Below, in pieces: positions 180-64,000 of a stretch of DNA of 64,000 nt. The notes beneath the pieces are model-generated. The model saw nothing but the letters and a program-made list of their open reading frames with translations, made no database searches and was not told the DNA's origin. The stretch covers positions 77,301-141,300 of the forward strand of contig NZ_NVQC01000023.1 of assembly GCF_003044035.1 (NCBI RefSeq), in the 5' to 3' direction. The position numbers and the translations under genes were made by a program. Every line of letters starts with the position of its first letter. Position 1 is the stretch's first letter. Origin of the DNA: Candidatus Methylomirabilis limnetica. GTDB lineage: Bacteria; Methylomirabilota; Methylomirabilia; Methylomirabilales; Methylomirabilaceae.

Positions 180-1358
180 ATGAAAGTCATCGGGCTCATG
201 TCTGGGACGTCGGCGGACGGAATCGATGTCGCCCTTCTGGAGATCGGTATCAACAAAGGGCTGCCGCAGCTCCGGCTGCTGCGCTTCGCGGTATTTTCTT
301 TTCCCAACGGGCTCCGGGAGCGAATTTTGCGAGTGGCAGACGCTGGATCGGGTGCCACCTCTGAGATCTGTCGTTTGAATGTTCTGCTTGGTGAGCTTTT
401 CGCGAAAGCGGCAATCTCGGTGGCCCGGAGTGCCCGCGTGCCGCTACGGGACGTGGCGCTCATTGGTTCGCACGGGCAGACCATCGCCCACCTCCCTGAC
501 CCTGCGGTTGAACACGGGGTATCGGTCCGCTCCACGCTACAGATCGGGGAGTCATCAGTCATTGCCGAGCGGACTGGCGTCACGACTGTGGCCGACTTCC
601 GCCCTCGGGACATGGCGGCGGGCGGCGAGGGCGCGCCGCTCACCCCTTATTTGCATGCGCTGCTCTTTCGGCATCCTCGTCGGGACCGGATTGTCCTGAA
701 CCTGGGTGGGATCGCCAACCTCACCTTCCTGCCGAGGGGCCGCGGCCTGCGCGGCGTGTTGGCGTTTGACACGGGACCGGGCAATGTTTTGATCGATGGG
801 CTTGTGGCACGCCTGACCGGCGGCGCGATGAGCGTTGACCTGGATGGCCGGATCGCCGCCTCTGGGGAGGTAGATCCGCGTCTGCTGCGATGGCTCATGG
901 CTCATGCCTACTTTCGTCGCAAGCCACCCAAAAGCACGGGGCGGGAAGAGTTTGGGCCGACACTGATCGACGCCCTGCTCCGCCGCGCGGCAGCCCGTGG
1001 CATTACAGAGGAGGATCTAGTGGCAACTGTTACAGCCTTCACGGCGCAGTCGGTGGCGCTCCACGTCCGACGTGAACTTCCACACAATACCGTTTCGCCA
1101 GAACTGATCACCTGTGGCGGCGGGGCCAACAACCCGATGCTGATCAAGGGACTTGAAGCCGCGCTGCCTGAAAGCCGTCTCCTTTCCGCTGATGAGGCTG
1201 GCTTTCCAGGGCGGGCTATCGAGGCCTCAGCCTTCGCACTGCTCGCCTACCTCACCGCCCACGGCCTGCCAGGCAATCTGCCCCGCATCACCGGGGCGAC
1301 CCATAGCGCGATCCTGGGCAAGATCGTTCCGGGACGGGCATTTCAGGGGCTACGATGA
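180..1358 (+). CDS. anmK: anhydro-N-acetylmuramic acid kinase
   Basis: N-terminus MKVIGLMSGTSADGIDVAL is the hallmark AnmK ATP-binding motif. Length about 390 aa. Start moved to the internal ATG at 180. Confidence 0.85.
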   Translation: MKVIGLMSGTSADGIDVALLEIGINKGLPQLRLLRFAVFSFPNGLRERILRVADAGSGATSEICRLNVLLGELFAKAAISVARSARVPLRDVALIGSHGQTIAHLPDPAVEHGVSVRSTLQIGESSVIAERTGVTTVADFRPRDMAAGGEGAPLTPYLHALLFRHPRRDRIVLNLGGIANLTFLPRGRGLRGVLAFDTGPGNVLIDGLVARLTGGAMSVDLDGRIAASGEVDPRLLRWLMAHAYFRRKPPKSTGREEFGPTLIDALLRRAAARGITEEDLVATVTAFTAQSVALHVRRELPHNTVSPELITCGGGANNPMLIKGLEAALPESRLLSADEAGFPGRAIEASAFALLAYLTAHGLPGNLPRITGATHSAILGKIVPGRAFQGLR

Positions 1359-9402: not shown

Positions 9403-10638
9403 CTAAAAAATTGAGGTCACCAGCAATAAGAGCGTGAGCACAACTATCACGAAGGCCGTTCCCCAGCCGATTAGGTTGGAGATCGGCGAGTTCACCTGCG
9501 CGCCCATGATCTTTCGGTCGTTGATCAGCAGGAGCATGAAGACCAGGACAGCCGGGAGCAGGATGCCGTTTAAGGTCTGGGAGAGATACATGATGGTGAT
9601 GAGCGGCGCCTTGGGCCAGAGGATCAGCAGCGCGCCGGCGCCCACCATGCTGAGGTAGATGCTGAAGAACCCGGGAGCCTCGCGAAAGGTCCGATTGATG
9701 CCCGTGTGCCAGCCAAGCCCCTCGCAGACCGCATAGGCGGTGGAGAGGGGCACGATGGCCGCGGAAAAGATGGAGGCGTTCAGCAGACCCACGGCAAAAA
9801 GGAGCGTGGCGTACTGGCCTGCGAACGGTTCGATCGCCATCGCAGCCTGTTCGGCCGTCTCGATCTGAATACCGTTCGCATTGAGGGTGGCACCGCACGC
9901 CACGATGATGAAGAACGCCACGGCTGACGCGACAATACTGCCTGTCCAAACATCGAACTTGACGTACCCATAGTCCTGGCGCCGAACTCCCTTATCGACG
10001 ATCGACGCCTGGATGTAGAACTGCATCCAGGGCGCAATGGTGGTTCCCACGAGGGTGATGAGCATAGTGAGATAGTCGCGCTCGATATGGAAGGTTGGCC
10101 TGGCAGTCTGCCGCAGGACGGTGGGCCAATTGGGGCTGGCCAGAAAGGCCGACACCAGATAGACGACATAGAAGAGGCTGGCGCCGAGGAAGATCCGTTC
10201 CACGAGGCGGTACGTCCCCTTGACGACCAACCAGCCCACCAGGAGCGCGGCCAGCGGCACCGTTGCGTATCGGCTCCACCCAAAGATCTCCATGCTCGCC
10301 GCCACGCCCGCGAATTCGGAAACGGTGTTGGCCAGGTTCGCCAGCACGAGAACCACCATCACGCCAACAGTGATCCGGACCCCAAACCGCTCGCGGATCA
10401 GCTCGGCCAACCCCTTGCCGGTCACGACCCCCATCCGCGAGCCCATCTCCTGGACGATGCCGAGGGCGATGGTGATGAACAACAGCGACCAGAGCAGACC
10501 ATAGCCGAACTGGGCGCCGGCAAGGGAATAGGTCGTGATCCCCCCCGCGTCCTGATCGACGCTGGCGGTAATGATCCCCGGGCCCATGATGGCGAGGAAA
10601 CGGAGGATCCGCCGCTTCTTGATCCGCGAAAGCCGCAT
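9403..10638 (-). CDS. NRAMP/SLC11-family transporter with NRMT-like (putative Mg2+) site substitutions
   Basis: Full NRAMP fold (GPGIITASVDQDAGG...AQFGYGLLW). The TM1 motif is DAGG where canonical is DPGN. The TM6 motif is TTIAPW where canonical is A-x-x-MPH. Confidence 0.8.
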   Translation of the reverse strand: MRLSRIKKRRILRFLAIMGPGIITASVDQDAGGITTYSLAGAQFGYGLLWSLLFITIALGIVQEMGSRMGVVTGKGLAELIRERFGVRITVGVMVVLVLANLANTVSEFAGVAASMEIFGWSRYATVPLAALLVGWLVVKGTYRLVERIFLGASLFYVVYLVSAFLASPNWPTVLRQTARPTFHIERDYLTMLITLVGTTIAPWMQFYIQASIVDKGVRRQDYGYVKFDVWTGSIVASAVAFFIIVACGATLNANGIQIETAEQAAMAIEPFAGQYATLLFAVGLLNASIFSAAIVPLSTAYAVCEGLGWHTGINRTFREAPGFFSIYLSMVGAGALLILWPKAPLITIMYLSQTLNGILLPAVLVFMLLLINDRKIMGAQVNSPISNLIGWGTAFVIVVLTLLLLVTSIF

Positions 10639-47229: not shown

Positions 47230-47820
47230 TCATGACCCAGGGGCAGGGGCAAAGGCGGCCTCGAGCTGCGCCAGGACAGCGGCCTCGGCATTCGAAACCT
47301 TTGAACCTATGCCGAACACGCCGCCGCTCGCGCTGGCCACCGTACGCGCTCGTTCCAACAAGCCTGCCTTAAGGCGAGCGGCTCCATCAGGCCCGAGATG
47401 CTCGCACATCCCCTGGACCAGGTACGTCCATGCAGTGAGGAGCTTGGGGTCCGGTCGGCGATCGAGCCAAGCTTCTAGCAAGGCATACTCGGTGGATCCG
47501 CGGGCGACTCCCGAGTCGCCCGCACGGTCGAGGATCGCGCGGCGCTCCTTGGCATCGAGCGTGCCATCGGCCCATGCCACCTCGACGAGCGGGACGATTA
47601 ATAGCGCAGTGACCGTCTCTGCCCGGATCCCCAACGCCATCAACCTGTCGAGAACCGCAGGCTTGGTGATGCCCGTGGCCTTGGCGAGGGCCTCCCGGGT
47701 CGTCTCGGCGACCTTCAGCTCGTTCAGCCGCTCGATCAGCCGCTGGTCCTCGCGGTGGAAGAATTCGTCCTCGAGATCCCGCCCGCGATCCCGCAGGCTC
47801 TCCGGCTCCTGTAGCGTCAT
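47230..47820 (-). CDS. TerB-like (tellurite-resistance / DjlA N-domain-like) protein
   Basis: AWADGTLDAKERRAIL is typical of the TerB-like helical fold. 196 aa. Confidence 0.45.
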   Translation of the reverse strand: MTLQEPESLRDRGRDLEDEFFHREDQRLIERLNELKVAETTREALAKATGITKPAVLDRLMALGIRAETVTALLIVPLVEVAWADGTLDAKERRAILDRAGDSGVARGSTEYALLEAWLDRRPDPKLLTAWTYLVQGMCEHLGPDGAARLKAGLLERARTVASASGGVFGIGSKVSNAEAAVLAQLEAAFAPAPGS

Positions 47821-47850: not shown

Positions 47851-49299
47851 CTACTTCACCTCATCGACTACGATCATGTTGTGTCCGGTGGCGGTCCAAT
47901 GGGTGCTCGCAACGAGTACGACCCGGTCTCCAGGACGAAGCAAGTCTCGTTCGCGAGCCCAGTCAGTCACGCGCCTCAGCAGTTCGCCGCTGTCGTGGGC
48001 TTCTGAAAAGTGGAGCGGGGTTACGCCCCAGTATAGGCTCATGCGACGAACAGTGGCTTCGTGATGACTGATGCCCAGAACCGGGGTGCGGCTGCGTTGC
48101 TTCGACAGCAACAGGGCGGTGTTGCCGTCCCGGGTGGCCACGAGCACAAGCGTGGCCCGGATCTCCTCCGCAAGACGGCTCGTCGCCTCGACGATGCCGT
48201 CGATGATCGACGACGCAGCCTTGGGCGAGCGAACTCCTGGCTCTGGGCCGACCAATGGCTCGATCATCGGCTCCGTTTCGCGCGCGATGGACCCCATCAT
48301 CGCCACGGCCTCCACCGGATAGTGGCCGATCGCGGTCTCAGCAGAGAGCATGAGGGCGTCGGAGCCGTCGAGGATAGCGTTCGCCACGTCAGTGGCCTCC
48401 GCACGAGTGGGCAGCCGACTCGACCGCATGCTCTCGAGCATGTGTGTTGCGGTGATGACAGGGACTCGCGCTTGCCGGCATCGCCGGATGATCTGCTTCT
48501 GCACTCCGGCGATCCGCGCGATGTCGATCTCAACGCCGAGGTCCCCGCGCGCCACCATGATGGCGTCGGCCTCGTGGATGATCTCGTCCAGGGCCTCGAC
48601 CGCCTCGGCCCTCTCTATCTTTGCTACGATCCGGGCGCCGGAGTCGAGGCGCCGGAGCTCGTCACGCAGCTCGCGCACGTCCTCCGGGCGGCGGACGAAG
48701 CTGAGACCGAAGAAGTCGACGGAATGCCCGGCCGCCCAGCGCACGTCGCCATAGTCCTTCTCGGTGAGCGCTCCACCCGGCAACTGGACGCCCGGCACAT
48801 TGATGCCGGCGCCCGAGCGAATCTCGCCGGGCTGGACGACACGGCAGACGACGGCGCCTTCCTGCTTCTCTTCGACCCGCATCGAGACCAGGCCGTCGAC
48901 CAACAATACCACGTCCCCGACCTCCAACTGTTGAACCAGCGCGCGGTGGCTCGACGTCAGATCATTTGGCCCGCGCGCCGCCGCTGGGTAGACGACGATG
49001 CGGAACCGGTGGCCAATCTCACAATTCACGCTCCCGCCGGCGATCGGCCCCAGCCGAATTTTCGGCCCGCCCAAGTCAGCCAGAATGGCCAGCGGACGAT
49101 CGAGATCCTCGCTGACCCGACGAATCCGTCCGATGACGGCTTCATGCCAGTCACGCCGGCCGTGGGCCATATTGAGCCGGAACAGGGCGACGCCGGCCTC
49201 GACGAGTTGAGTCAATCGCTCGACCGTTTCACTCGCCGGACCGATGGTCGCGACAATCTTGGTCTTTGTGCTGATAAGGGGCTTGGCGGTCAGGCTCAC
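47851..49299 (-). CDS. pyk: pyruvate kinase
   Basis: TKIVATIGPAS...LFRLNMAHG N-terminal signature and MVARGDLGVEI motif. Confidence 0.9.
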   Translation of the reverse strand: MSLTAKPLISTKTKIVATIGPASETVERLTQLVEAGVALFRLNMAHGRRDWHEAVIGRIRRVSEDLDRPLAILADLGGPKIRLGPIAGGSVNCEIGHRFRIVVYPAAARGPNDLTSSHRALVQQLEVGDVVLLVDGLVSMRVEEKQEGAVVCRVVQPGEIRSGAGINVPGVQLPGGALTEKDYGDVRWAAGHSVDFFGLSFVRRPEDVRELRDELRRLDSGARIVAKIERAEAVEALDEIIHEADAIMVARGDLGVEIDIARIAGVQKQIIRRCRQARVPVITATHMLESMRSSRLPTRAEATDVANAILDGSDALMLSAETAIGHYPVEAVAMMGSIARETEPMIEPLVGPEPGVRSPKAASSIIDGIVEATSRLAEEIRATLVLVATRDGNTALLLSKQRSRTPVLGISHHEATVRRMSLYWGVTPLHFSEAHDSGELLRRVTDWARERDLLRPGDRVVLVASTHWTATGHNMIVVDEVK

Positions 49300-52405: not shown

Positions 52406-53755
52406 TCAGGTGGTGCATTTTGCCGAGGAGACGGGCCTTGGAAGCAGCCAAAACAAGAGCAGGGTCCCTATCACCGCGGACAATGCCGACCCAGACAGAA
52501 TCCCCACCTTGGCGGCGTTGAGCAATACGCCCTCCAACGCCAAGCCTGCGATGAATAGCGCCATGGTGAAGCCGATACCTGCCAGTATGCCGCCCGCTGT
52601 AAGTATGCTCCAGTTCACACCCTCAGGCAGCTTGGCAATGCCCAAGCGCACCGCCAGCCAACTAAAACTTACAATGCCTACAGGCTTGCCGACTCCTAGG
52701 CCTACCATGACCGCCACCGCAACGGGTTCACGAAAGTCCGTGAGGTTGATCGATACCCCAGCATTTGCCAACGCAAAGAGGGGCATGATCACAAAGCTCA
52801 CCCACGGGTGCAGTGCGGTCTCAAGCCGTTCAAGGGGGGACAAAATCTCTCGTGCCGCCACCTGGATATCACGCAACGCCGCGTGGTTCTTCCCCTCATT
52901 ACTCCAGCGTTCCCCTTCAACATACGCAGTAAACTGCTGGACGATCGCGTGCAGGCGGCCCGCACTGACCCACACATGGGCCGGCGTGAGCAGACCCAAG
53001 ATCACGCCGGCAATCGTGGCATGGACCCCGGATGCATGGAACGCCAACCAGATCACCGTCCCAACGATGCAATAGATCGGGACACTGCGCACCCCAAGGC
53101 GGGCCAGTCCTCTCACGACACCAAGACCCAGCAAGCCCAAGAAAAGCGCAGCGAGGTTGATGTGGCTTGTATAGCCGATAGCGATGACGAGGATGGCGCC
53201 GACGTCGTCAGCGATCGCCAGCGAAAGGAGGACAATACGCAAGCCCTGCGGGACCCGTGTCCCCAAGACCGCCAGACAACCAACGACAAAAGCGATGTCG
53301 GTCGCCATGGGAATACCCCAGCCGCGCTCGCCGGGCTGTCCGAGTTGGCCCGCGAGATAGAGAGTAGCCGGTACGACCATGCCGCCCGCCGCTGCAATGA
53401 TGGGGAGCGCGGCCGTTCGCATGTCCCTGAGTTCCCCGAGTACTAATTCGCGTTTGACTTCTAAGCCAACCACGAAAAAGAAAATCGCCATGAGACCGTC
53501 GTTGATCCAATGCCTTAAAGAGTGGTTCATCTCAAACGTACCAAACGTGAGACCGAATGGAGTCTTCCACAGGCCCAGAAATGCATTTGCCAAAGGTGAG
53601 TTGGCGAGAGCGAGCGCAAGACATGTAGCAAAAAGCAGGAGAAACCCACTGGCTGCCTCGATACGCAAAAAGCGCGCGAGCGGCTCGATGATGCGATCGA
53701 CCGGTTTCGCGGGCAGGCGAGCCAGGTCGTTGGAGTGTTGAGGTTGTTGCAACAT
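52406..53755 (-). CDS. nhaA: Na+/H+ antiporter NhaA
   Basis: NhaA fold (LAIADDVGAIL, VGLLAGIGFTM). Start set to the MLQQP ATG at 53755. The ORF extends 39 codons further upstream without a clear RBS. Confidence 0.75.
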   Translation of the reverse strand: MLQQPQHSNDLARLPAKPVDRIIEPLARFLRIEAASGFLLLFATCLALALANSPLANAFLGLWKTPFGLTFGTFEMNHSLRHWINDGLMAIFFFVVGLEVKRELVLGELRDMRTAALPIIAAAGGMVVPATLYLAGQLGQPGERGWGIPMATDIAFVVGCLAVLGTRVPQGLRIVLLSLAIADDVGAILVIAIGYTSHINLAALFLGLLGLGVVRGLARLGVRSVPIYCIVGTVIWLAFHASGVHATIAGVILGLLTPAHVWVSAGRLHAIVQQFTAYVEGERWSNEGKNHAALRDIQVAAREILSPLERLETALHPWVSFVIMPLFALANAGVSINLTDFREPVAVAVMVGLGVGKPVGIVSFSWLAVRLGIAKLPEGVNWSILTAGGILAGIGFTMALFIAGLALEGVLLNAAKVGILSGSALSAVIGTLLLFWLLPRPVSSAKCTT

Positions 53756-54013
53756 ACTGCGGCACCCAATTCTGACAAGGTCTCTGCCGGTAGAGTCGAA
53801 GAAGGGTGCGGTGGTCTTAGGAACGGGGAATCGCTGTTGTCGGAAGCCTTCGCTGCTGTACCGGCGCCTCAATCCGTCCCATCACTCCGTCTCCCGACTC
53901 TGCTCATCGAACCGGACGTGCGGATTTACCGCATCCGGCTCTCCGACTGGTATTACACACCAGGACCCACGCAGGCGGCGTCACCCGTGGCGCTCCTAGC
54001 GTGGGGATACGCA

Positions 54014-59161: not shown

Positions 59162-60373
59162 CTACTCGACGTAGACGATTAGCTGCACGCCCATAAGGAT
59201 CACGAAGAGAGCCGGAACCAACCCCCACCAGCGTTGTTTCATAATCCCTAACGTTCCCATGAGATACGTCATACCGGCAAGGAGCGCGGTGACCCCCTCG
59301 GTCGTGTGAGGCGAATTGGCTCGCCCGACGTAGTTGAAGTTGCTGATCGGATGCAGATGGAATAACAGGGTCACCCCTCCCATGATGGCGAGCCACGGAA
59401 AGATCATTCCCCATATCGAATGAGAGAGTATACGGCGCGCCCGCAGCCATTCCACAGACCCCATGGCGAGGACGATGATGCCGGAGAGCTTATGCTCGAT
59501 GGCCTCCCGGTCACCCAGGAGTTCGGTCAGCGTCTTTGGGCCGAACGGCCAATACTCCGGGTCGCTCCGGTAAAGGATAAACATTGCTACGCTTAGCGTC
59601 AGCAGAGGCCATAGATGGGCGAACCTGGACTTCTGACCTCCCCAGAGGGCGGAGCCTGTCATCGCCATACCCATGACGAGTACCAGCCATCCGGAAAAGT
59701 GATGGTTAAAGTTCGAGAACTCCGTATGCGCTTTCCATGTCTCCCAGCTTCCCGCTTCGTCCGGCGGGATCGTTCGATCATCGAACGGGGCCAGAAGAGG
59801 GTTCATGCTTGCGAACAACCCGTACGGATTCGGGTACCAGATCCAGAGACGGATAGCCCACATGTCCGGATACCAGGCAGTGAATGAGCTTTTCGTCTCA
59901 GGATGAATCTGAGGGCAGCCTTCTCGGGATAGTGATCGATATTCCTGCCAGTCCGCATAGCGACAGATCGCCAGGCTCCGATCCCAGTCTATTCCGGTAA
60001 ACGGGCTCTCGGCGGGACGGGCTCCAGCGGCTGTATATTTCAGCGCAACCAGTTGCCATTGCCCCTGCCTCTCGGTGTAAAGTAGTGTGGAGGGGTGGGC
60101 ATAATCAATTTGCGTGATACCTGCCTTGTAAAAGTGGTAGCCTTCTAACGGCACATTTCCCGATATCTGCACGTACCCATCCGCTTTCGCCTGCTCCAGG
60201 TCCTGATACCGCGAAGTGGACGTCCGAATATCGGCGAGAAGTCTCGCGAGGGCGAAGTCCTTTTCCGGCTCCTTCGCGTACCAGTGCCCATGATTCATAT
60301 AATAGTCAGAGCCCCAGGCCAGGCCACCGGCCAGCAGCGTGATGACCACAAACGCGATGAGTTGTCTCTTCAC
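59162..60373 (-). CDS. hypothetical membrane protein (periplasmic N-domain + 5-6 C-terminal TM helices, His-rich)
   Basis: Signal/TM start, W/Y-rich soluble region, then a hydrophobic C-terminal half. No known motif. Confidence 0.45.
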   Translation of the reverse strand: MKRQLIAFVVITLLAGGLAWGSDYYMNHGHWYAKEPEKDFALARLLADIRTSTSRYQDLEQAKADGYVQISGNVPLEGYHFYKAGITQIDYAHPSTLLYTERQGQWQLVALKYTAAGARPAESPFTGIDWDRSLAICRYADWQEYRSLSREGCPQIHPETKSSFTAWYPDMWAIRLWIWYPNPYGLFASMNPLLAPFDDRTIPPDEAGSWETWKAHTEFSNFNHHFSGWLVLVMGMAMTGSALWGGQKSRFAHLWPLLTLSVAMFILYRSDPEYWPFGPKTLTELLGDREAIEHKLSGIIVLAMGSVEWLRARRILSHSIWGMIFPWLAIMGGVTLLFHLHPISNFNYVGRANSPHTTEGVTALLAGMTYLMGTLGIMKQRWWGLVPALFVILMGVQLIVYVE

Positions 60374-60504
60374 GTACCCTCCTCCTTGTCAGCCGATCGA
60401 ACCACGGCAACATCCCCGCTTCATATTCCCCGCCGGATGCCGCCTCTAAGCCAAATGGTCTTCATCCCCGCGAAGCTTGTCCCCGCATGCTTGAAACGGG
60501 GAGC

Positions 60505-60575
60505 GGCAATCCAGAGAGGCGCTGGATTCCCCCGTATCAAGTACGTGGCAGGCTTGTCAAGCCCGGAATGACACC
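60505..60575. repeat. REP-2 structured repeat, partial copy
   Basis: ggattcccccgtatcaagtacgtggcaggcttgtcaagcccggaatgac. Confidence 0.5.
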
Positions 60576-60729
60576 CAAGCACAGAGATACAAAGTTGTCA
60601 TTGCGAACGAGGTGAAGCAATCTCGCAGATTGCCACGCACCCTGCTGGTGCTCGCAATGACAGAAAGAAGCTAGTGATTGTGCAGTCTATCGCTGTTCTT
60701 GGGTAACAAACTGTCTGCTGTTCGCCGCA

Positions 60730-62055
60730 TCACGACACCGTTTGATTCTTCGCGAAGAGGATATAGGACCTTGCTCGGCCCTCACGGATGGCCTGCTCGA
60801 CCAGGGCCCGAGGCTCCTTCGCCTTGACTCTTGGCAGGATCGCCTCGAAGAACTGGATGTAGAAATCGTCTGGCACCACGACTACGGAGGCACGCATTGT
60901 GAGCCCCGCCCGGTCGATGGTTCTCGCGTAGCGAACAGTACGGCTTTTACCGGACGCAATCCTGGTGTCAAAGAGTTCTTGTGTCAGATCAAGCGTGACC
61001 TCTCGCCCGATCCGTTCCTCTTGCACACTCTCATTCACCTGCTTACCATCCGTATCTACTAACTCCCATCGGACTATGATCTTCGGCGTAACGTAGGTTG
61101 GGACATGATGCCCAACCCCGGTATTAGCCAGCGTGATTTCAGCCTGAACTTGCTCGCCGACCTGGTAGCGCTCCTTATTTACCGAAAGACGGACGGATAC
61201 GCCTTGCTTGACCATCTCAGGATCATGGATCCCCCGCCATAGATGCCGCCGCTCCGGCATATGGCAGCCCTGACAGGTCATCCCTCCCAGCGCATACGGC
61301 CCCTCTTTCCATTCATTATAGGTGTTTTCGAGCAGCTTACCGTTCAGGGCAGACCCACTCGGCTCGAACTGGTGGCACCCTTTGCAGAACTCGGATCGCT
61401 CAAAGGCCGCCGTCCTGATGGCGCCGGCGTGGGGGAGCTGTGCTACCGGAGCGGAATTCTCAATCGAGCCGTCCCGCTTTGGCGGCCCGAAGCGCTGGTG
61501 CTTCCGAACATGGCACCCGGCACAGGTCAGACCCTTTTGCTGCAGCGAGGCCGAAAAGGCGCGGTTCGTTTTGAACTTCAACGCGGTGCTGCCCCAGACC
61601 CCTGACGCGCTCGGCAATGGCGTCGCAACGGCGCGGCGCTTCTTGAACAGAGAGGGGGAACCACCGCCTTTCTTCACGACCTTCTCCTGCTGCTCGGTGA
61701 GAGGAGCATGACAACTGTAGCAGAGGATCGCCATATTGGGATCACCATGGATAAACTCCATCGTCTGGCCTATCACGCCCGGCCCCATACTTTTACTGTG
61801 GAGGCTGCTGCTCCAATCCTCGTACTGAGTTCGATGGCAGACGGCGCAACTTTCCGGGTCAAGAGATGCCTCTATCGACGAGAAATGGGCGGGCGGCTTA
61901 CCTTGAGGCGGGATGGGCGTCTGCCAATGGCGCGTGAGAAACTCAAGCTGCGCGTCGTCATCGGCAGCGGGTGGCGGGTCTTTCATCGCCCATGCGCCAA
62001 CCGAAAGCCCCAGGCCTGCGATCACGACAGCGGTATACAGAAGAAGCCGTTTCAT
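60730..62055 (-). CDS. pentaheme c-type cytochrome (secreted)
   Basis: Five CxxCH: CAVCH, CYSCH, CAGCH, CKGCH, CQGCH. Signal peptide MKRLLLYTAVVIAGLGLSVGAWA. Start set at 62055 because the upstream in-frame 77 codons are the translated REP-2 repeat. Confidence 0.75.
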   Translation of the reverse strand: MKRLLLYTAVVIAGLGLSVGAWAMKDPPPAADDDAQLEFLTRHWQTPIPPQGKPPAHFSSIEASLDPESCAVCHRTQYEDWSSSLHSKSMGPGVIGQTMEFIHGDPNMAILCYSCHAPLTEQQEKVVKKGGGSPSLFKKRRAVATPLPSASGVWGSTALKFKTNRAFSASLQQKGLTCAGCHVRKHQRFGPPKRDGSIENSAPVAQLPHAGAIRTAAFERSEFCKGCHQFEPSGSALNGKLLENTYNEWKEGPYALGGMTCQGCHMPERRHLWRGIHDPEMVKQGVSVRLSVNKERYQVGEQVQAEITLANTGVGHHVPTYVTPKIIVRWELVDTDGKQVNESVQEERIGREVTLDLTQELFDTRIASGKSRTVRYARTIDRAGLTMRASVVVVPDDFYIQFFEAILPRVKAKEPRALVEQAIREGRARSYILFAKNQTVS

Positions 62056-62065
62056 TCTCGTCGAG

Positions 62066-62215
62066 GGTCGATACCCTGCGGCTTGCCGCGAGTTCGTCAT
62101 ACCGGCGGAAGCCGGTATCCAGAGGGCCCGACTGGATTCCGTGTCAAGCACGGAATGACGGGCCAGTACAGAAGTCGATACCCCGTAGCTTGCCGCGGGG
62201 TAGTTCATCGATGGC
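62066..62215. repeat. REP-2 structured repeat (reverse orientation, plus an extra partial unit)
   Basis: ggtcgataccctgcggcttgccgcgagttcgtcataccggcggaagccggtatcc...gtcaagcacggaatgacgggccagtacagaag. Confidence 0.65.
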
Positions 62216-62224
62216 GCCCACTCC

Positions 62225-62893
62225 TTACCTCTTGCGGGGCGTCTTGCCGGCGTCCAAAAGGATTCCGATGAGCCTCTGAGCATCATCTCCCGCCCAATCC
62301 CTCGGCCCGATGCTCCCAGCCACGACCTTCCCGTCGCGATTGATCAGGAGCCGGGTTGGCGTGGCGCGAACCCCGTACAGGTTGGCGACGCTTGAGCTGG
62401 TGTCCACAAGAGCGGGAAAGGTGAGCTTATGCTTGAGCACATAGTTCCGGACCTGGTCGGGCGGCTCGGCGATGTTCACTGCGAGCACGACGAAATCGTT
62501 CTTCTGAAACTGCTGGTAGAGGCGCTCGAGTGAGGGAAACTCCCTCAGGCAATAGCCTCACCAGGTTGCCCAGAAGGTCAGGAAGACGACCTTTCCACGC
62601 TGGTCAGCCAGCCGGACCGACTTCCCTGACACGTCCTGGAGTGTAAAGTCGGGAGCAACCGATTCGTTTCGGAGCTTAATGAACCCGAGGGCTTCCAGGG
62701 AACTATCTATGGAGACGGTTTCCTGACCAGCGCCGACAGAGATAACCGGGGAGGCGACGAGCATACAGCCGAGTAAAAGAACGGCCACCCACCCAGGGCT
62801 CTTTCTTGAGAGGTGTCGGTTTATCTTCACTGCCTTACTCTCACTTCTTGCTACCCACTGTCGCTGGTCTTGCGCCAGCTCTGAGCCAATCAT
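62225..62893 (-). CDS. TlpA/ResA-like thiol:disulfide oxidoreductase, candidate selenoprotein (in-frame TGA at 62558-62560 replaces the first Cys of the CxxC motif)
   Basis: Single reading frame ...[48 protein letters not shown]...LTFPALVD, thioredoxin-fold TlpA-like on both sides of the TGA. N-terminal TM anchor. Hairpin 11 nt downstream of the TGA. Confidence 0.65.
62532..62546 (-). promoter_or_regulatory. candidate bacterial SECIS hairpin (GAGGGA-GUU-UCCCUC) 11 nt 3' of the in-frame UGA
   Basis: Perfect 6-bp stem with a GUU loop beginning 11 nt after the UGA. This is the spacing of the minimal E. coli fdhF SECIS. Confidence 0.5.
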
Positions 62894-62903
62894 AGTTCAT
62901 AAG

Positions 62904-63058
62904 TAACTACTCAGGTGTTTAGGCTGAAGACTGAAGGTTCTAAATTATCTCGCAAGGCCCGAATCGAGCCATTCAAGATCTTTTCTGAGTTTTCTTTGAT
63001 CACGCATGACTTACCCCTAAAAGCCTTCAGCCTTCAGCCTATCTACCTGAGTAGTTAC
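62904..63058. repeat. MITE-like element, complete (subtype A)
   Basis: gtaactactcaggtgtttaggctgaagactgaagg...ccttcagccttcagcctatctacctgagtagttac. Confidence 0.75.
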
Positions 63059-63059
63059 A

Positions 63060-64000
63060 ATACCCCCGCCCATGAAGGCTGGACAGGATCATTTTCCACT
63101 TCAGCTCGTTTTGACAACGCAAAAGGGACCCACCGTGATAAAGCAAAAGGAACCCACCTCTGTTCAGTGATAGTCGGGCCTGTGGGAAGCATGGGAAAGC
63201 CGGAGGCTTTTCCATGCTGCGGTCGAAATCCGCACTGGTTGCGGGTCGTTACCACAGCGGGACGCTTCACAGGCCTGTCGCCTTCCTTCCGTTTGATACC
63301 TTGAGACTCTCGCACCAGAATCTCTCGCACTAGGATCGCCCAGCAACAACGATCGATGAGACGACCCTCAGCTCGTTCGTAGTGTCACGCCCCGCCGCGT
63401 CGATCCATCGGATCAGGATTAGGTAGTAGCCACAACACGAGGAGCAGGCTTGTGAGCCAGGCTCTTCTGCTTCAGGCTGTCCGTGAATCGGATACTCTCC
63501 CAGCCGAACTCGTGGATCGCACAGTGATGGGTGAGCCGATCCAACAGGGCCGCCGTGAGCGAGGCATCGCCGAAGACGCTCGTCCAGTGCGCAAAGGCCA
63601 GGTTCGACGTCACGATCATCGACCCCTTCTCGTAGCGATCTGAAAAGACCTGGAACAACAGTTGGGCCCCCTCGGCAGAAAAGGGGATGTAGCCAACCTC
63701 GTCGATGATGAGGAGCTCATAGCGCGACAGCCTGGCTAACTCGCGCGTGAGCTGCCGCTCCTCTCTCGCCTCGATCAGCGTAGTGGTCAGGTGCGCAGCA
63801 GTCGTGAACAGCACCCGATACCCCTTACGGCAGGCCTCGACACCCAAGACCGTGGCCGCATGCGTCTTTCCCGTACCGTGCTTCCCTAACAGGACCAGGT
63901 TCTCCCGCCGGCTGATGTACTGACACTCAGCGTACGCGCGCACCTGGGTGACCTCGAATCCCGGCCACTTGGTCAGGTCCGTCGTCTCCAGGGTCCTCAG
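63060..64000. mobile_element. IS21-family insertion sequence, right-hand end (terminus with short direct repeats, plus istB). Continues beyond the window.
   Basis: istB helper ATPase gene, with repeated aaagg(g/a)acccacc motifs at 63120-63160 in the sub-terminal region, as in IS21 ends. Confidence 0.6.
63419..64000 (-). CDS. istB: IS21-family transposition helper ATPase IstB (5'-partial, runs off the window)
   Basis: Walker A LLGKHGTGKTHAA and Walker B LLIIDEVGY. The frame stays open to position 64000. Confidence 0.8.
   Translation of the reverse strand: MRTLETTDLTKWPGFEVTQVRAYAECQYISRRENLVLLGKHGTGKTHAATVLGVEACRKGYRVLFTTAAHLTTTLIEAREERQLTRELARLSRYELLIIDEVGYIPFSAEGAQLLFQVFSDRYEKGSMIVTSNLAFAHWTSVFGDASLTAALLDRLTHHCAIHEFGWESIRFTDSLKQKSLAHKPAPRVVATT

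Follow-up and report, generated by a model that had tools for sequence, protein, structure and literature searches.

Thioredoxin-fold selenoproteins in which selenocysteine (Sec, U) takes the first position of a UxxC active site have been catalogued since 2004-2008. The catalogue lists a Prx-like thiol:disulfide oxidoreductase (PF00578) and a thiol-disulfide isomerase-like family (cd02966, TlpA-like), as well as a Redoxin family protein (PF08534) and a UGC-containing TlpA disulfide reductase (PMC13188914). Prx-like thiol:disulfide oxidoreductases are found in 28 organisms (Peng et al., PMC5029168). Here we describe a gene from Candidatus Methylomirabilis limnetica, located in a 64,000-nucleotide stretch of contig NZ_NVQC01000023.1 (positions 77,301 to 141,300, hereafter the window), whose frame is interrupted by a TGA at the position of an active-site cysteine. 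We consider it very likely that this single gene, Sec-TlpA, encodes a Sec-containing, membrane-anchored periplasmic thiol:disulfide oxidoreductase of the TlpA/ResA thioredoxin-fold family, acting by the mechanism proposed below. By both domain and motif the predicted protein falls within the definition of the Prx-like selenoprotein family (Kryukov & Gladyshev 2004; PF00578 plus UxxC, as given in PMC13188914 Table 1). Positions are those of the window and are collected in Table 1.

The Sec-TlpA gene lies on the minus strand (62893..62225), where translation gives one frame of 222 codons with a sole internal stop, the TGA at codon 112. The listing of open reading frames (ORFs) instead holds two entries, of 111 aa (62893..62558) and 87 aa (62488..62225), which share that frame. 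The 87-aa ORF starts only at an internal GTG, so that on its own it would be a thioredoxin fold without an active site. An initial annotation of the window had joined the two entries into one gene interrupted only by the TGA and had read the junction as FWATW-U-GYC, with Sec replacing the first Cys of a WCxxC motif; translation and alignment both bear this out. Translation probably begins at the GTG at 62830 (V22) rather than at the ATG at 62893, because in the 76%-identical loci L021 and L022 the equivalent position is preceded by a stop. A six-frame codon-usage scan of the window returned seven TGAs flanked on both sides by coding-like sequence, among which only that at 62560..62558 is convincing. 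Of the other six, those at 47232 and 49611 mark the normal ends of genes; the remainder fall in weak ORFs of the opposite strand.

The gene is called as two fragments in all public assemblies examined. The exact 111-aa N-terminal fragment ending at the TGA is recorded on seven contigs; the four that were read each derive from a different sample (ENA ERZ4201064 and ERZ27280245; JGI 3300037497 and 3300037264). All four carry the TGA, and in all four the gene callers split the gene in two. A collection of 5.8 billion proteins holds no full-length protein of more than 64% identity, and the read-through product is therefore unannotated in that collection. Neither the Methylomirabilis genome papers nor the BSepDB paper covered by literature searches for selenoproteins mentions the gene.

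Evidence for Sec at codon 112 comes from the distribution of codons among homologues. A scan of species-representative genomes and metagenomes returned 74 loci (designated by L numbers). The nearest full-length homologues (P0001-P0003, ~61% identical) read FWATWCPYC, which places C opposite U, the alignment that the initial annotation had suggested looking for. About 48 distinct homologues carry TGC or TGT at this codon. The same TGA is present in at least nine distinct homologous sequences, with identities of ~43-86% where tblastn measured them reliably (loci L001, L002, L018-L023, L025-L027, L062, L067 and L075-L078). These include Ca. Methylomirabilis sp. bin48 (L001, 86% amino acid identity) and a metagenome-assembled genome (MAG) of an uncultured Nitrospinota (L002, 43%); the remaining carriers include unbinned metagenome contigs, and at least two phyla are represented overall. 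The alternation of TGA with TGC or TGT at one codon is, as judged from this comparison, the classic Sec/Cys pattern.

The frame downstream of the TGA is also maintained. Over the 110 codons 3′ of it, the window and L001 differ by no indels and no stops, and their 20 differing codons comprise 10 synonymous and 10 non-synonymous differences. The ratio of non-synonymous to synonymous substitution rates (dN/dS) between the two is 0.30 after the TGA and 0.20-0.31 before it. The intact codons and a dN/dS of 0.30 indicate purifying selection on the downstream half. The frame 3′ of the TGA is likewise intact in L002, L018-L027 and L075-L078. In L062 and L067 the corresponding domain reads FWATW*GVC; in L062 (863-2900, plus strand) it sits at the C-terminal end of an ORF exceeding 620 aa and thus belongs to a protein of differing architecture.

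The TGA is followed by a hairpin resembling a bacterial selenocysteine insertion sequence (SECIS). The initial annotation gave this hairpin as 6 bp (GAGGGA-GUU-UCCCUC), beginning 11 nt after the TGA. The hairpin is indeed present, and it extends to 7 bp with a spacer of 10 nt (GGCUAUUGCC) and a distance of 17 nt from TGA to loop. Bacterial SECIS (bSECIS) elements are delimited by a loop of 3-9 nt, a stem of 4-16 bp, a G within the first two loop positions, a UGA-to-loop distance of 16-37 nt and a minimum free energy (MFE) of -7.5 or lower (PMC13188914 Fig. 2). With its 3-nt loop starting GU, 7-bp stem, 17-nt spacing and -9.2 kcal/mol for the bare hairpin, the element in the window lies within every one of these limits, in agreement with the initial proposal that it is placed as a bacterial SECIS. 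The 51 nt from the UGA onward fold with an MFE of -21.7 kcal/mol (z = -3.4 against dinucleotide shuffles; 2 of 200 shuffles equal it).

Comparison of the hairpin between lineages provides additional evidence that it is selected as a structure. Its register is constant across all TGA-bearing lineages, while its arms vary: UGAGGGA/UCCCUCA in the window corresponds to GGAAGGA/UCCUUCC in L002 and to GCGCGGA/UCCGCGC in L062, the latter core (GCGCGGA GUU UCCGCGC) being that of both L062 and L067. The loop GUU is kept in the window, L002 and L062; L021 and L025/L026 have GUUC where the others have GUUU. In an alignment of eight sequences, 96% of the cells are paired and four of the seven pairs have changed on both sides, a result that none of 500 shuffles matches. 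The two-sided changes occur in the L002 and L062 lineages. As a register control, sliding the 3′ arm by 1-3 nt abolishes the pairing. Some of the compensations proceed through amino acid changes, for example an R to K replacement paired with a synonymous Pro change, and the structure is therefore kept beyond the needs of the peptide. When the same bSECIS test was applied to the homologues, eight of nine distinct Sec sequences passed as compared with three of 48 Cys sequences (Fisher 8.5e-7, a value that is only indicative because the sequences are phylogenetically related). In this genome the hairpin sits within an extended stem-loop whose lower helices were considered as a required part of the SECIS and rejected. 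They are broken in L018/L019 (GGC to UCC) and are not conserved, and for this reason they are probably not essential, as far as sequence comparison can indicate.

The protein read through the TGA contains a single thioredoxin-fold domain that spans the interrupted codon. With Cys in place of the stop, residues 79-200 match Pfam PF00578 AhpC-TSA (106.6 bits against a cut-off of 26, E 1e-30) and PF08534 Redoxin (95.5 bits against a cut-off of 26.6, E 3e-27). The active site follows the W-C-x-x-C pattern as W-U-G-Y-C, in which the second Cys is present and Sec stands for the first. The best solved relative is ResA of Bacillus subtilis (3c71, 1st9; E = 1e-28 over 116 residues crossing the TGA), in which the first Cys of the active-site CxxC aligns with the TGA codon. 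The Glu of R-E-F-P in Sec-TlpA aligns with the Glu of K-E-F-P in ResA, which we take to be the functionally important Glu80. Among NCBIfam models the best is the ResA subfamily NF002854 (119.5 bits against a cut-off of 170), followed by the TlpA equivalog NF047696 (83.5 against 230), the ResA-like WAxxUGC model NF041054 (70 against 300) and the TUGYCR redoxin NF053656 (25.4 against 100). All of these scores fall below the curated cut-offs, and the protein is therefore a generic member of the TlpA/ResA family outside every curated equivalog.

The protein has a single strongly hydrophobic segment, at residues 36-54. K/R residues precede it and the orthologues have equivalents, so that it is probably an N-in signal anchor with the domain on the periplasmic side. 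A lipobox at LLLGC was considered and rejected: the hydrophobic run extends beyond the Cys, and the orthologues read LLFGG, which lacks Cys.

The next gene downstream encodes a pentaheme c-type cytochrome with five CxxCH motifs, as the initial annotation had stated. Its start is probably the MKRLLLY at 62055, 170 nt past the TlpA stop; the listed ATG at 62286 is probably too far upstream. The spacer between this start and the TlpA stop spans two repetitive extragenic palindrome (REP)-like palindromes. REP-like palindromes in fact fill the spacers on either side of the cytochrome gene (62060-62205 and 60421-60615), for example GTCGATACCC..GCTTGCCGCG.. and, as a further unit, TGTCAAGC.CGGAATGAC; they give rise to spurious ORFs, among them the N-terminal extension carried by a 518-aa ORF call. 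A third gene encodes a 403-aa protein whose only family match is a marginal LiaF-TM hit in Pfam (28 bits), an NCBIfam search giving none. The order Sec-TlpA, pentaheme cytochrome, 403-aa gene is shared by the window, L018/L020, L019/L023 and L075. Adjacency of TlpA and cytochrome extends to L001, L025 and L026, and also to L024, where the TlpA is a Cys orthologue.

The cytochrome has as its best solved relative a distant homologue, MccSep (9wt8; E = 4.7e-9), and as its best NCBIfam match the "(seleno)protein ExtKL" model NF040886 (65.8 bits; cut-off 250). The polysulfide reductase MccSep, a periplasmic pentaheme protein, relies on Sec325 and the heme-ligating Cys239 (bioRxiv 10.1101/2025.11.18.688581). 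The aligned Methylomirabilis cytochrome has Tyr/Thr at the position of Sec325 and Leu at that of Cys239, with Cys absent nearby. Both residues being replaced, the two proteins share the MccSep scaffold and differ in the catalytic residues.

In the mechanism that we propose for Sec-TlpA, the UGA at 62560..62558 would be decoded as Sec during translation rather than as a stop, and the mRNA hairpin 10 nt 3′ of it would bring SelB-GTP-Sec-tRNA(Sec) to the ribosome. The product would then carry a U-G-Y-C active site in which Sec112 replaces the nucleophilic first Cys of ResA. Following the chemistry of the family, Sec112 would attack a substrate disulfide to form a mixed selenenylsulfide, which Cys115 would resolve to an internal Se-S bond; this bond would in turn be reduced again by a CcdA/DsbD-type membrane reductant. 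From textbook knowledge, a member of the TlpA/ResA family would be expected to reduce the CxxCH thiols of apocytochromes, as ResA does. Such a role toward apocytochromes, with which the initial annotation had found the position of the gene consistent, is suggested here by family similarity together with the conserved adjacency to the pentaheme cytochrome. On the basis of the conserved three-gene cluster we tentatively name as the likeliest substrate the CxxCH cysteines of the neighboring cytochrome before heme attachment, or else another periplasmic partner in the cluster. The conserved adjacency supports a functional link between TlpA and cytochrome and is silent on its kind.

Several observations weigh against the reading of the gene as a Sec-encoding, cytochrome-directed oxidoreductase. 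The TGA-bearing loci L025 and L026 have an imperfect stem, and the Cys-type locus L024 (FWATWCPYC, ~61% identity) keeps the 6-bp version of the hairpin (GAGGGA-GUU-UCCCUC; 10289-10340, plus strand), so that the hairpin is not exclusive to Sec forms. L024 is nested in the Sec clade of a neighbor-joining tree, and in the simplest reading it may represent a recent Sec-to-Cys reversion with a leftover "fossil SECIS". ResA of B. subtilis has K-E-F-P at the hairpin site, which means that a conserved peptide motif coincides with part of the hairpin. A point of little weight is that Rfam gave no match on the hairpin, either at the gathering threshold over the whole window or at E<=10 over 62450-62620; five weak matches in the latter interval (E up to 10) were rejected as noise. 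The genes selA, selB and selD and a tRNA-Sec were not found within the window or the related loci fetched: ARAGORN detected zero tRNAs in the window and 19 related loci, and Pfam assigned only housekeeping and transport functions to the ten largest plausible ORFs of the window. Finally, the sub-cut-off scores of all specific NCBIfam models leave the exact subfamily and substrate loosely fixed, and the Sec-TlpA genes of L002 and L062 have no adjoining cytochrome.

The last two of these points also speak for a genuine Sec enzyme whose function is something other than cytochrome maturation, such as a general periplasmic reductant, a reductase for the ScoI/CoxB copper chaperones, or an enzyme directed at peroxide or sulfur compounds. 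It is a serious possibility, though on balance a doubtful one. AhpC-TSA is the best Pfam family, some homologues have precomputed SCO1/SenC (PF02630) matches, and resBC/ccsBA, the usual company of a dedicated ResA, were not seen in the cluster. Set against this are the cytochrome adjacency, which holds for orthologues at 61-86% identity, the Cys form among them, and the likeness to ResA, which is the best solved relative and whose K-E-F-P Glu is retained as R-E-F-P. A further proposal is that Sec-TlpA, the pentaheme cytochrome and the 403-aa protein constitute a dedicated periplasmic redox module with Sec supplied in trans, in which the thioredoxin-fold partner would provide the Se-S chemistry and the hemes would deliver electrons, so that Sec-TlpA would be more than a maturation factor. 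We regard this arrangement as improbable.

Sec decoding at codon 112 has in turn to be compared with two explanations that dispense with it, both of which we consider highly unlikely. The first, which the initial annotation had itself raised, is that a Cys-type TlpA was inactivated when its TGC or TGT mutated to the nonsense codon TGA, leaving a pseudogene from which only a truncated, inactive N-terminal fragment is made. Such a history would agree with the two ORFs of the public gene calls, with the lack of a full-length protein above 64% identity in the 5.8-billion-protein collection, and with the IS21 fragment and inverted repeat just upstream, which mark a disturbed region. It does not agree with the retention of the TGA in nine distinct sequences from at least two phyla, with 110 downstream codons free of frameshift and stop and under a dN/dS of 0.30, or with a downstream hairpin that covaries; repeated independent nonsense mutation at exactly the catalytic Cys codon is not credible.

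The second is that the UGA is read through or reassigned without Sec, for example by a near-cognate Trp or Cys tRNA or under a general code in which UGA is a sense codon. This would fit the failure to find Sec machinery within the 64-kb window. TGA, however, terminates 11 of the 31 long ORFs in the window, whose GC content is 58%, and the genetic code is therefore standard, with no reassignment. In addition, the codon coincides with the redox-active Cys of homologues, the structure downstream of it conforms to the SelB-binding SECIS model, and the genus is listed as Sec-utilizing. Ca. M. oxyfera appears among "all Sec-utilizing organisms" with six known selenoproteins (Peng et al. 2016, PMC5029168 Table S2), the same study reports perfect agreement between SelB and the Sec trait, and a Methylomirabilota MAG with 63 predicted selenoprotein genes has been described (2026 review, PMC13188914). 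By analogy with this genus-level literature on Ca. M. oxyfera, the present genome presumably uses Sec as well. Taken with the Sec/Cys pairing, the conserved downstream frame, the SECIS-like hairpin and the use of TGA as a normal stop elsewhere, the selenoprotein interpretation of the initial annotation is upheld. A TGA created by sequencing or assembly error is extremely improbable, since beyond the single base that separates TGA from TGC or TGT nothing favors it, the N-terminal ORF is identical on seven contigs with the TGA in the four read from four samples, and diverged homologues share the TGA.

Table 1. Features of the Sec-TlpA locus in the window.
Feature	Coordinates	Strand	Details
Read-through gene	62225..62893	-	222 codons from ATG 62893; 201 from GTG 62830; TAA stop 62227..62225
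In-frame TGA, codon 112	62558..62560	-	Proposed Sec codon; first position of UxxC (U-G-Y-C)
Cys115 codon (TGC)	62549..62551	-	Putative resolving cysteine of UxxC; invariant in alignment A1
Thioredoxin-fold (TlpA/ResA-like redoxin) domain, residues 79-200	62294..62659	-	Pfam match spanning the TGA
N-terminal hydrophobic segment, residues 36-54	62732..62788	-	Kyte-Doolittle mean 2.35 over 19 residues
SECIS-like upper hairpin	62531..62547	-	UGAGGGA 62547..62541; loop GUU 62540..62538; UCCCUCA 62537..62531
Extended stem-loop in this genome	62519..62559	-	Lower helices GAGGC/GCCUC and UUG/CGA flank the upper hairpin
Pentaheme c-type cytochrome	60730..62055	-	441 aa; 5 CxxCH motifs; conserved downstream neighbor
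403-aa membrane protein	59162..60373	-	Third cluster gene; soluble N-terminal part, multi-pass C-terminal membrane part

The region upstream of the gene is variable. A 35-nt inverted repeat (62903-63058, minus strand; 89% complementary, 86-nt spacer) begins 10 nt upstream of the ATG at 62893, and beyond it lies a fragment of an IS21-type IstB ATPase (63419-63943, minus strand; PF01695, 1.3e-56). The short-read contig L075 ends in this region, and L076-L078 differ upstream of an identical gene; the differing contexts of the same gene therefore identify this as a variable junction. In L076 the identical Sec-TlpA gene is preceded by a 54-aa Zn_ribbon_8 (FmdB-type) gene (979-1143, plus strand) and by a PIN/PhdYeFM toxin-antitoxin pair. 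FmdB-family proteins are among the predicted UxxU selenoproteins (2026 review, PMC13188914).

Elsewhere in the window, an nhaA-I RNA (RF03057; 56594-56652, minus strand) scores 46.3 bits against a gathering score of 37 and precedes a run of minus-strand genes whose last member is an NhaA Na+/H+ antiporter (52406-53872). The pyruvate kinase at 47851..49299 (minus strand) is 100% identical to WP_107563069.1 of Ca. M. limnetica, whereas its counterpart in a MAG labelled M. lanthanidiphila is 92% identical; the window accordingly belongs to Ca. M. limnetica or to a strain nearly identical with it.

The presence of Sec-TlpA would mean that an active-site selenoenzyme is missing from the annotation of an environmentally important nitrite-dependent methanotroph. 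The Methylomirabilis selenoproteome would gain a periplasmic, cytochrome-linked member, and selenium supply could then affect periplasmic redox maintenance. The clade also offers a compact, well-resolved case of Sec/Cys interchange and of SECIS covariation inside a coding region. Knowledge of selenoprotein mechanism is unchanged by this gene, and no new class is opened.

Sec-TlpA resembles each of several described systems and coincides with none of them in every respect. With ResA of B. subtilis, an extracytoplasmic protein of cytochrome c maturation, it shares the active-site region FW.TWC..C..EFP and a membrane-anchored architecture, which in Sec-TlpA is predicted, but ResA has Cys where Sec is proposed here, and resBC/ccsBA do not adjoin the present gene. 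TlpA of Bradyrhizobium (1jfu, 4txo), a periplasmic membrane-anchored reductant, is of the same fold and family (E = 1.8e-18 against 1jfu). It lacks Sec, and its known clients, ScoI and CoxB, were not seen in the cluster described here. The NCBIfam models NF041054 and NF053656 have in common with Sec-TlpA a ResA-like or redoxin fold and Sec in the active-site motif, which here reads WATW-U-G-Y-C. NF041054 is a model of 354 positions as compared with the 201-222 aa of this protein, which belongs to neither of the two.

The hairpin can be compared with described SECIS elements in the same way. The SECIS of E. coli fdhF has a bulged U, whereas the hairpin following the Sec-TlpA codon does not; binding of SelB to this hairpin is putative. 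The consensus bSECIS (Zhang & Gladyshev 2005, via PMC13188914) accommodates it in all respects, with the loop at the 3-nt minimum.

The closest correspondence is with the catalogued UxxC families, which share with Sec-TlpA the PF00578/PF08534 domains, the position of Sec as first residue of UxxC, and a SECIS-type hairpin after the UGA. Compared by description, the literature on these families was not found to describe an occurrence in Methylomirabilis or a cluster with a pentaheme cytochrome. Since UxxC families of TlpA-like, redoxin and Prx-like proteins exist, as do NCBIfam ResA-like models, the kind is not new. The detection of an unannotated selenoprotein gene in this genome thus appears correct and is well supported by sequence comparison, and the gene belongs to a kind of selenoprotein that is already known.

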